Below the pieces are notes generated by a model. That model made no database searches. It was not told the DNA's origin and worked only from the letters and a program-made list of their open reading frames with translations. Shown one piece after another: positions 23,556 through 60,883 of a stretch of 64,000 nt of DNA. A program made the position numbers and the translations under genes. The stretch is from Escherichia phage T4: sequence record OZ209057.1, one strand, 5' to 3'. Position 1 is the first letter of the stretch, and the number at the start of each line of letters is the position of its first letter.

Positions 23556-24221
23556 TTATAGTAGTGTTCTTGTTCCACGAAATACTTCGAGCATTCTTGC
23601 ATAAGATTTATTTGGAAATCCAGCTTCAATTGCTAATTTTTTAAGCTTAATAGCACCGGGTTTTCCAGAGTTTTCCCATATTTCTTTAATCTTTTCAATG
23701 TTATCCCACATTATTGGGTCACGTTTATGTGATGGTTTATTTCTATTATAACCATATGGATTATTAAGCAAAGCTTCTTTTCGTTTTGCTTTAGTTTCTT
23801 CTGACTGCTTTTTGCCTAGCTGGGCTTTCCGGCAAACATCACTAAATCCAAGATGTTTTGGTTTTCCTTTTTGAGCTTTTGAAATTTTTTCTTTGGTTTC
23901 TGATGAAACTCTATAACCAATTCTTCTACCACCCTCTCCACCAATTTTTAAATTATAAGTCATAGGATCATTTACCACATCTATTGTTACTAATTCTCTT
24001 TCAGCATCACGGGCTGATTTAAAATCTTTATAAAACCCAAGAATGCTTAAATTAAAATTTTTCTTACCATACTTTTTCTTGGCTTGTGCTAATAAAGTTC
24101 CTGATCCCATATAACCATCATTTAAATCATCGGTTGAATGAGTTCCATAGTAAATTTTATTATTAACTAAATTAGTTATAACATAAGTATAATTATATTT
24201 CTTTTCTTTATGTCTTTTCAT
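23556..24221 (-). CDS. segA: GIY-YIG homing endonuclease SegA
   Basis: 221 aa from ATG at 24221; YTYVITNLVNNKIYYGTH ... YMGSG motifs. Confidence 0.85.
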   Translation of the reverse strand: MKRHKEKKYNYTYVITNLVNNKIYYGTHSTDDLNDGYMGSGTLLAQAKKKYGKKNFNLSILGFYKDFKSARDAERELVTIDVVNDPMTYNLKIGGEGGRRIGYRVSSETKEKISKAQKGKPKHLGFSDVCRKAQLGKKQSEETKAKRKEALLNNPYGYNRNKPSHKRDPIMWDNIEKIKEIWENSGKPGAIKLKKLAIEAGFPNKSYARMLEVFRGTRTLL

Positions 24222-32395: not shown

Positions 32396-32412
32396 GTTTT
32401 TCCTCCATAGAG

Positions 32413-32436
32413 ATTATACTCTAATAAATTAAAGCA
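32413..32436 (-). promoter_or_regulatory. MotA-dependent middle promoter candidate (MotA box TGCTTTA - 11 nt - TATAAT)
   Basis: plus strand attata 32413..32418 and taaagca 32430..32436. Confidence 0.55.
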
Positions 32437-45534: not shown

Positions 45535-46004
45535 TTTAAACTCTTTCTAAGCTGCTTCTTGAATGAAGCTATTAATTGTGTTTTGGTGTCAGATTCATTA
45601 TATTCAAATCCTCTTTGAAGCATCTCGGCCATCATTTCCTCTTTTCCTAAACGAGAAAATTCCTTTGATTTATCTCCAACAAAGTTAGGGTGAATATTAT
45701 TTTGGGTGTAATCGGATTTTAAATAAGTAAGTAAATTTTCTAACCATTCAAGATAATCAACACCTTGTCCCTTTAAGCCAGAACGATTAAATTTATGCTT
45801 CATTTGACCTTCTGCAGCATTGCATAGATTACAAAGCAATCCACGCACCTTTCCTGCTTTTGGTCCATTTAATTCATGGTCATGGTCGAGGTGATTAGCT
45901 TGAACATCAGGATTTAGTTCTCGTTGGCAAATTAAGCATTTACCGTTTTGTGCATCATAAAATTTCTGTTTTTCTTCTTTGTATAATTTGCCAGTCAATA
46001 ACAT
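45531..46004 (-). CDS. 49: endonuclease VII (Holliday junction resolvase) gp49
   Basis: 157 aa; zinc site CLICQ...HLDHDH...CNLCN. Confidence 0.9.
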   Translation of the reverse strand: MLLTGKLYKEEKQKFYDAQNGKCLICQRELNPDVQANHLDHDHELNGPKAGKVRGLLCNLCNAAEGQMKHKFNRSGLKGQGVDYLEWLENLLTYLKSDYTQNNIHPNFVGDKSKEFSRLGKEEMMAEMLQRGFEYNESDTKTQLIASFKKQLRKSLK

Positions 46005-59872: not shown

Positions 59873-60090
59873 GTCACCTTTAAGCAGTATTCTTCTACAT
59901 GCTGTTTACGACCTTTCTTATCAATAAAGGTATATTCAACGAATGTTCCAATGTAGTCTTTATCTACATCATGTGGACTATTAATTGGACATTTAGTGCG
60001 ACAAATGCGTTCCCATTGACGAATAATTACTGCCTTATTCTTTGGGTCATATGGATGTGGATAATGTATATTCATAATAATGGTTCCCAA
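59863..60090 (-). CDS. hypothetical small protein (tk.3 position)
   Basis: 75 aa ORF. Confidence 0.5.
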   Translation of the reverse strand: MGTIIMNIHYPHPYDPKNKAVIIRQWERICRTKCPINSPHDVDKDYIGTFVEYTFIDKKGRKQHVEEYCLKVTWL

Positions 60091-60539
60091 TCAACAATCA
60101 CAATTTCTAATTTAGAGGAATATGTATCTAAAATCCCCTCAATAATATCCCAGTTCCCTTTACCTATGCCTGCACCAATCCTAGGCATATAGATTGTAGG
60201 TTTAATCAGTTTATTTTCACCAAACTCATTTAATTCTAACATACAATTCATTAAAGCGGAATACTCAAAATTTGGCCCTGGTTGAAATTGAGTATAAAGA
60301 TTGAAGCAGTAAGCTTTATGAGTCCTAAAGTATTTTTCATAGACTGAGTAAGAACCGAGTTTAGTTACATCACCCCATTCAGTCTGTAATTTATCAGCTT
60401 CCAAAATTTTAGGGAAAGCTTTGGTTAATTGACCCGCTACGCCTGAACCCATAGTATGAAAACAATTACATCCATGTGCAATATTTTTACCTTCAGCGAA
60501 AAGGGCGACAATATCGCCCTTGATATATTTTACAATCAT
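60072..60539 (-). CDS. macro-domain protein (ADP-ribose binding/processing), tk.4 position
   Basis: 155 aa; GDIVALFAEGKNIAHGCNCFHTMGSGVAGQL macro-domain signature. Confidence 0.7.
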   Translation of the reverse strand: MIVKYIKGDIVALFAEGKNIAHGCNCFHTMGSGVAGQLTKAFPKILEADKLQTEWGDVTKLGSYSVYEKYFRTHKAYCFNLYTQFQPGPNFEYSALMNCMLELNEFGENKLIKPTIYMPRIGAGIGKGNWDIIEGILDTYSSKLEIVIVDWEPLL

Positions 60540-60883
60540 CTAGTACTCAATCCTCGATTATAAGAATCTACCAAACGGTCAACCATTGAATGACAAGCGG
60601 CTTTATCTTTCTCCTCCGCAACTGAACATTCTAAGGTATTCCACTTTTTAGCATATCGTTTTAACAATGTATCGTTTTTGTATCTGCTTGATTTATCTCT
60701 TTCTCCGTCTTTATATGCATATATTAATTTCTGTGCAAATTCAGCTTGGCATGCCTTATTTTTCCCACAATAATCTGCCGCAGTGCGGTTTACATATTCT
60801 CTAATTTCAGTATATGATGTATCTGCTGACGCAGAAGCAGAAAATGAAATTAATCCTATACATAAAACCAAAATTTTAGTCAT
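60536..60883 (-). CDS. vs: secreted small protein, position/size consistent with Vs (valyl-tRNA synthetase modifier)
   Basis: 115 aa; N-terminal signal peptide; assignment by synteny. Confidence 0.45.
   Translation of the reverse strand: MTKILVLCIGLISFSASASADTSYTEIREYVNRTAADYCGKNKACQAEFAQKLIYAYKDGERDKSSRYKNDTLLKRYAKKWNTLECSVAEEKDKAACHSMVDRLVDSYNRGLSTR

Follow-up and report, generated by a model that had tools for sequence, protein, structure and literature searches.

The described systems closest to the locus analysed here are the macrodomains of the DarG antitoxins (compared here from T. aquaticus, 5M31/5M3E, and M. tuberculosis, 5M3I), the phage protein gp104 of PhiKZ, human TARG1 and Streptomyces SCO6735. 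PhiKZ gp104, named AdfM, is a stand-alone phage macrodomain acting against DarTG2 (Cell Rep 2026, PMC13309987) that removes the ADP-ribose attached by DarT2 (T-ADPr) from DNA in vitro (PMC13309987), and TARG1 has been described as reversing thymine-ADP-ribose. SCO6735 efficiently removes thymidine-linked ADP-ribose from DNA without possessing the catalytic residues of TARG1 and DarG; its Q85A variant is inactive and its N27S variant nearly so, and the chemistry proposed for it relies on a backbone-positioned water, while the distal ribose would be held by Gln85 (PMC9411070). T4 itself also carries AdfN (gene 30.3, NADAR), an orphan antitoxin-like eraser that counters DarTG1, the sister system of DarTG2; AdfN is unrelated to Tk.4 in fold, acts specifically on guanine-ADP-ribose and gives no protection from DarTG2. 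As T4 lacking both adfA and adfN is still resistant to DarTG2, a further factor was to be expected (PMC11825919).

The HIDEN-SEQ study is a preprint of November 2025 (bioRxiv 10.1101/2025.11.20.689424). In it, tk.4 is reported as the single significant hit when a T4 transposon library was grown on a DarTG2 host, a clean tk.4 knockout is described as DarTG2-sensitive, and the gene is renamed adfM, for anti-DarT factor Macrodomain. The result comes from one laboratory, at 30°C and in minimal medium; the phenotype is a genetic one, and removal of ADP-ribose from DNA 'seems likely' in the words of that text. The sections of the preprint consulted here liken Tk.4 only to M. tuberculosis DarG, on the basis of fold, and do not mention the lysine-to-glutamine difference described below. 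These data support the suggestion of the initial annotation, made from the sequence of the locus, that the protein could reverse a host ADP-ribosylating defence; the proposed infection of a DarT-type host with a deletion mutant is the experiment carried out in the preprint, with the knockout proving sensitive to DarTG2.

The window, i.e. the whole stretch of 64 kb that was analysed, is bacteriophage T4, the 2.1 kb around tk.4 being 100% identical to many T4 records. The ORF under study (Table 1) is tk.4 of RefSeq NC_000866.4, and its translation is identical at 155/155 residues to NP_049723.1, a protein annotated as 'phosphatase; contains A1pp phosphatase motif'. It is thus the same gene as adfM as defined for the anti-DarTG2 factor of T4, and the finding as such is already known: tk.4 is a named and annotated gene of T4, for which genetics provided a function in 2025. 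A six-frame profile search recovered it, at 211 bits, as the sole domain of its kind across the 64 kb. Among differences between T4 sublines, a missense change in tk.4, 106A->G (Ser36Gly), has been listed (PMC8573959); codon 36 (60432-60434, minus strand) encodes Gly36 both in the window and in NC_000866.4, and glycine is also the family consensus.

Table 1. Features of tk.4 and its borders in the 64-kb window (residue numbers refer to Tk.4)
Feature	Position	Strand	Basis and remarks
tk.4 / adfM CDS, single macrodomain	60072..60539	minus	155 aa, ATG to TGA; ORF list, identity to NP_049723.1, Pfam Macro, AF2
Signature G8-D9 ... H22-G-C-N25-C ... M30-G31-S-G33-V-A35, residues 8-38	60426..60518	minus	Translation
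H22-G23-C24-N25-C26, active-site strand end	60462..60476	minus	Alignments
Asp49, family-specific (259/260)	60393..60395	minus	Column counts; Tyr in SCO6735, BT1257 and DarG
N80-L-Y82-T83-Q84	60288..60302	minus	Gln84 codon CAA at 60288-60290
P119-R-I121-G122-A-G124-I-G126-K-G128, glycine-rich diphosphate-binding loop	60156..60185	minus	Alignments
ATGA overlap, vs stop (TGA) / tk.4 start (ATG)	60536..60539	minus	Sequence, ORF ends, T4 annotation
ATGA overlap, tk.4 stop (TGA) / tk.3 annotated start (ATG)	60072..60075	minus	Sequence, T4 annotation
GAGGA, possible Shine-Dalgarno (tentative)	60551..60555	minus	11 nt upstream of tk.4 ATG, within vs end

The macro-domain signature that had been recognised in the sequence of Tk.4 proved to be genuine: it comprises residues 8-38 and lies in a protein that matches Pfam PF01661 (Macro) with 27.7 bits (cut-off 22, E 2.9e-6) over profile positions 2-113 of 118. 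The AF2 model (pLDDT 95.3) predicts the three-layer alpha/beta/alpha macro fold. The top Foldseek match of this model is human TARG1/OARD1 (4J5R), and its nearest structural neighbours are TARG1, DarG, Poa1p and SCO6735/BT1257, with MacroD-type, viral and PARG-type macrodomains clearly behind, which places Tk.4 in the ALC1/TARG1-like class. The initial annotation had named the absence of the ADP-ribose-binding residues as an argument against its proposal. These residues are present in Tk.4, i.e. the loops G31-S-G33 and P119-x-I-G122-x-G124 together with N25, and sequence and profile alignments show them to be near-invariant in 260 homologues.

To compare the active site with those of characterized macrodomains, we gathered 260 members of the Tk.4 family by two database searches and derived residue equivalences from sequence and profile alignments (HMM to TARG1, MAFFT and an hmmalign column map) with TARG1, both DarG macrodomains, PhiKZ gp104, BT1257 and SCO6735. 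Within the signature, G8, H22, C24 and M30 are kept in 242-251 of the 260 members (H22 in 248), and G23, N25, C26, G33 and A35 in 258-260, N25 being present in every one (260/260). In the glycine-rich loop, P119, G122 and G124 are found in at least 258 members (G124 in 258). The segment H22-G23-C24-N25 aligns with H24-V25-C26-N27 of SCO6735, so that N25 is equivalent to N27 of SCO6735 and likewise to N22 of DarG and N23 of PhiKZ AdfM. Gln84, as part of a 'TQ' motif, occupies the position at which TARG1 (K84), DarG (K80) and PhiKZ AdfM (K78) carry the catalytic lysine of a 'TK' motif, and corresponds to Gln85 of SCO6735; it is present in 259/260 members, the sole exception being a truncated fragment. 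G124 is the equivalent of SCO6735 G128, while G126 falls on the position of the catalytic Asp125 of TARG1, which means that the TARG1 dyad K84/D125 is replaced by Q84/G126. Since Gln84, Asn25, His22 and Gly124 are near-invariant across the 260 members, the active site of Tk.4 is not degenerate, and since SCO6735 is active without the catalytic residues of TARG1 and DarG, the missing lysine is no argument against activity of Tk.4.

The Asn/Gln pair of Tk.4 (N25/Q84) is common to S. coelicolor SCO6735 (N27/Q85; PDB 5E3B) and Bacteroides BT1257 (2FG1/2AFC), the latter being the best PDB match of Tk.4 with an identity of 26-29%. Tk.4 departs from the SCO6735 group by having C26, D49 and Y82-T83 in place of D, Y and I-G, and, unlike SCO6735 and BT1257, it is phage-borne and used in counter-defence. 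The Tk.4 family profile also scores SCO6735 (55.7 bits) no better than TARG1 (58.6) or Poa1p (58.0). With an identity to BT1257 of that order and several conserved positions differing, the SCO6735 mechanism is one that we infer for Tk.4. Poa1p is a further close structural neighbour that has the HxCNC motif in common with Tk.4 and differs by a serine at the position of Gln84; of the residues mutated in Poa1p structures (H23, S30 and F152), H23 aligns with H22 of Tk.4 and S30 with T29, in a single alignment.

We also considered whether Tk.4 represents a DarG and rejected this. It reaches 30.3 bits on the NCBIfam equivalog NF048014, for which the cut-off is 250, along the first ~146 of 338 positions only, and just 36 bits with the DarG model of PADLOC; moreover, the catalytic K80 of T. 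aquaticus and M. tuberculosis DarG is exchanged for Gln84. The C-terminal DarT-binding domain of DarG is absent from Tk.4, which consists of the macrodomain only within its 155 aa and is matched by the DarG HMMs over their first ~145 positions, and no darT gene adjoins tk.4, its neighbours being vs and tk.3. Tk.4 and PhiKZ gp104 resemble each other as stand-alone phage macrodomains countering DarTG2, but orthology of the two was rejected: BLASTP aligns merely 23 residues (E 0.005), the DarG models score gp104 with 133-138 bits versus 30-36 bits for Tk.4, a gap of ~100 bits, and gp104 keeps the catalytic K78 beside N23 where Tk.4 has glutamine. The score gap, the lysine/glutamine difference and the short BLASTP alignment together indicate that they are functional analogues from different macrodomain lineages and not orthologues. 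The name AdfM has thus been given independently to two non-orthologous proteins, the Gln-type Tk.4 of T4 and the DarG-like, Lys-type gp104 of PhiKZ, and this double use constitutes a naming problem.

On the minus strand of the window, tk.4 lies in the head-to-tail gene order regB, vs.1, vs, tk.4, tk.3, tk.2, tk.1, tk, and it overlaps both of its neighbours by ATGA (Table 1), an arrangement typical of translationally coupled T4 genes. Accordingly arranged, tk.4 would be translated as one link of the overlapping chain vs.1-vs-tk.4-tk.3-tk.2-tk.1-tk. The GAGGA upstream of its start is a tentative Shine-Dalgarno sequence because the spacing is long; X04567.1 annotates a ribosome_binding_site under this match. 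A dedicated promoter of tk.4 was sought and none was found; a sigma-70 scan of 58.8-63.6 kb gave 20 sites versus 18.0 +/- 4.2 expected and is uninformative since this number is at chance level. The MotA-box-like pattern TGCTTNA-N10-14-TANNNT has 21 matches in the window versus 8.6 expected, a number reached in 0/100 shuffles, e.g. at 32411-32436, 23745-23770 and 45597-45622 (all minus strand), and these presumably are T4 middle promoters; between 46 and 64 kb there is no match, and none is closer to tk.4 than about 12 kb. We thus regard tk.4 as probably being read through from upstream promoters. Two further features were set aside as incidental: a plus-strand ORF antisense to tk.4 (59899-60192, 97 aa), which has no support from annotation or homology, and a plus-strand terminator-like hairpin (60501-60521), terminator matches being at chance level. 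The gene directly upstream, vs (valyl-tRNA synthetase modifier; 60536-60883, minus strand), overlaps the tk.4 start and is, according to the HIDEN-SEQ preprint, the T4 gene most depleted in M9 minimal medium versus LB (bioRxiv 10.1101/2025.11.20.689424).

Two further comparisons are consistent with the genetics. T5 is strongly restricted by DarTG2 (PMC11825919), and a six-frame search of the whole T5 genome with the Tk.4 profile, DarG, gp104 and SCO6735 yielded no matching ORF, the best score being 9.3 bits; applied to the T4 window, this search detects tk.4 with 211 bits. The lack of a homologue in T5 fits its DarTG2 sensitivity and, as a comparison of one phage with one phage, is only suggestive. 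In the mutant T4 clone T4_7t1 (OL964745.1; L004 872-1247), tk.4 is split into two short 'macro domain-containing' ORFs, which is consistent with a gene that is dispensable in laboratory growth. As a separate observation, T5.102 and T5.105 (L009 7448-9095) are annotated as Sir2-like NAD-dependent enzymes.

Gene identity, fold and residue pattern of Tk.4 thus come from the present analysis and its genetic phenotype from the literature; activity, substrate and chemistry we infer by analogy. We consider it probable, at roughly 80%, that Tk.4 hydrolyses the thymidine-ADP-ribose made by DarT2 on single-stranded DNA by a lysine-independent Asn25/Gln84 chemistry. This reading is favoured by the knockout phenotype, the in vitro precedent of PhiKZ gp104, the T5 comparison and the domain fusions described below. 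The DarT2 toxin of DarTG2 ADP-ribosylates thymidine in single-stranded DNA; in this scheme, Tk.4 would accommodate the ADP-ribose in the cleft typical of macrodomains and cleave the thymine-ribose bond, and replicable DNA would be restored; the chemistry would be of the SCO6735 type, using Asn25 and Gln84, and not that of the catalytic lysine of DarG, TARG1 and PhiKZ AdfM. Concerning the DNA that DarT2 modifies, a caveat is that T4 DNA carries glucosyl-hydroxymethylcytosine and that there is a C within TNTC, the motif of DarT2.

A wider proposal, which we regard as doubtful, holds that T4 AdfM, instead of being a DarG acquired by the phage, belongs to a separate and far commoner phage lineage of lysine-less Asn/Gln macrodomain erasers related to SCO6735, possibly with broad substrates (thymidine-ADPr DNA, uracil-ADPr RNA and acidic-residue ADPr protein), and that it acts as a general eraser against several defences or of the Alt/Mod marks instead of being a dedicated anti-DarT2 factor. 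That Tk.4 might primarily act on ADP-ribosylated protein or RNA, be it the marks set by Alt, ModA and ModB or those of other host defences, with protection from DarTG2 as a side activity, seems to us improbable. T4 does encode three ADP-ribosyltransferases. SCO6735 also removes Glu/Asp-linked ADP-ribose from protein and uracil-linked ADP-ribose from RNA (PMC9411070, PMC13036486), and the wide spread among phages (2846 records) could mean a more general need. Against this, tk.4 is dispensable in standard conditions, was scored in the DarTG2 condition only and is split in the mutant T4 clone. Alt and Mod, furthermore, modify arginine, and we know of no ALC1-like macrodomain that cleaves Arg-linked ADP-ribose. 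Removal of ADP-ribose from protein or RNA might be an additional activity of Tk.4.

Hydrolysis is also not the sole possible route to protection, since catalytically dead SCO6735 inhibits DarT by binding: the Q85A variant does so in vitro more than dead DarG or dead TARG1 (PMC9411070). ICP1 AdfB, too, neutralises DarT by direct interaction (PMC11481870). Tk.4 could hence protect mainly non-catalytically by binding DarT2 or by shielding ADP-ribosylated sites, comparable to the C-terminal domain of DarG and to AdfB, and to this we assign an even smaller likelihood. Tk.4 has no counterpart of the DarT-binding domain of DarG, and ~260 members, down to ~35% identity and from phages of many host genera, show near-invariance of Asn25, Gln84 and His22 as well as of the glycine loops. 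Such near-invariance across diverse phages is a better fit to an enzyme working on a constant chemical group than to a protein that binds a toxin through a surface subject to variation.

Least probable of all is that Tk.4 acts as an ADP-ribose-1''-phosphate phosphatase or processes soluble ADP-ribose derivatives (Appr1p, O-acetyl-ADP-ribose or signalling nucleotides). T4 repair by PNK and Rnl1 is not known to yield a 2'-phosphate or Appr>p as a by-product. The likeness to Poa1p in structure and HxCNC motif speaks for such a role, but Poa1p lacks the glutamine, the phosphatase label stems from a domain-name match of 2006 (PMC1524935) and not from an assay, and DarTG2 sensitivity, the sole tk.4 phenotype found, would be left unexplained by a phosphatase of soluble metabolites.

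Among 50,697 phage records, 2846 (about 5.6%) carry Tk.4-type genes and 287 carry gp104-type genes. The Tk.4-type carriers include T4-like, Felixounavirus-like, Vequintavirinae-like, Kuttervirus-like and ICP1-like phages as well as Pseudomonas myoviruses of ~90 kb, and in a library of 50%-identity representatives the Tk.4 profile retrieves 1223 proteins at E <= 1e-30. Two homologues that were inspected for their genomic context, such as a neighbouring darT, stem from 'bacterial' MAGs (Bacilli and Culicoidibacterales; L002 1927-2397 and L003 6001-6480). The contigs of both are rich in T4-like phage genes (Rnl1, PNKP, Dda-like helicase, dCMP deaminase and SLT), and since both thus lie in T4-like phage contigs, they are uninformative on a bacterial origin. 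Two domain fusions were also observed. In a protein of 472 aa (P0225; L005 6001-7419, also L006 6001-7419), encoded on a contig of mainly orphan genes, a Tk.4-type macrodomain (HGCNC ... TQ) is joined to NADAR and DUF4326, so that the fold linked to anti-DarTG2 activity (thymidine-ADPr) and a guanine-ADPr-erasing fold (NADAR, used against DarTG1) are combined in one chain. A second protein (P0246, 247 aa) couples a Tk.4-type macrodomain to NUDIX, which could degrade the released ADP-ribose.

What the present analysis adds is of modest novelty: judged by its residue pattern, T4 AdfM is most likely a Gln-type, SCO6735-like eraser and not a DarG mimic. If true, no earlier counter-defence enzyme of a phage would belong to this SCO6735 type, which works independently of lysine. 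The presence of Tk.4-type genes in about 5.6% of phage records suggests a widespread pressure from thymidine-ADP-ribosylating or related systems, and Tk.4 and gp104 together suggest that different macrodomain lineages have supplied phages with such erasers on at least two occasions.
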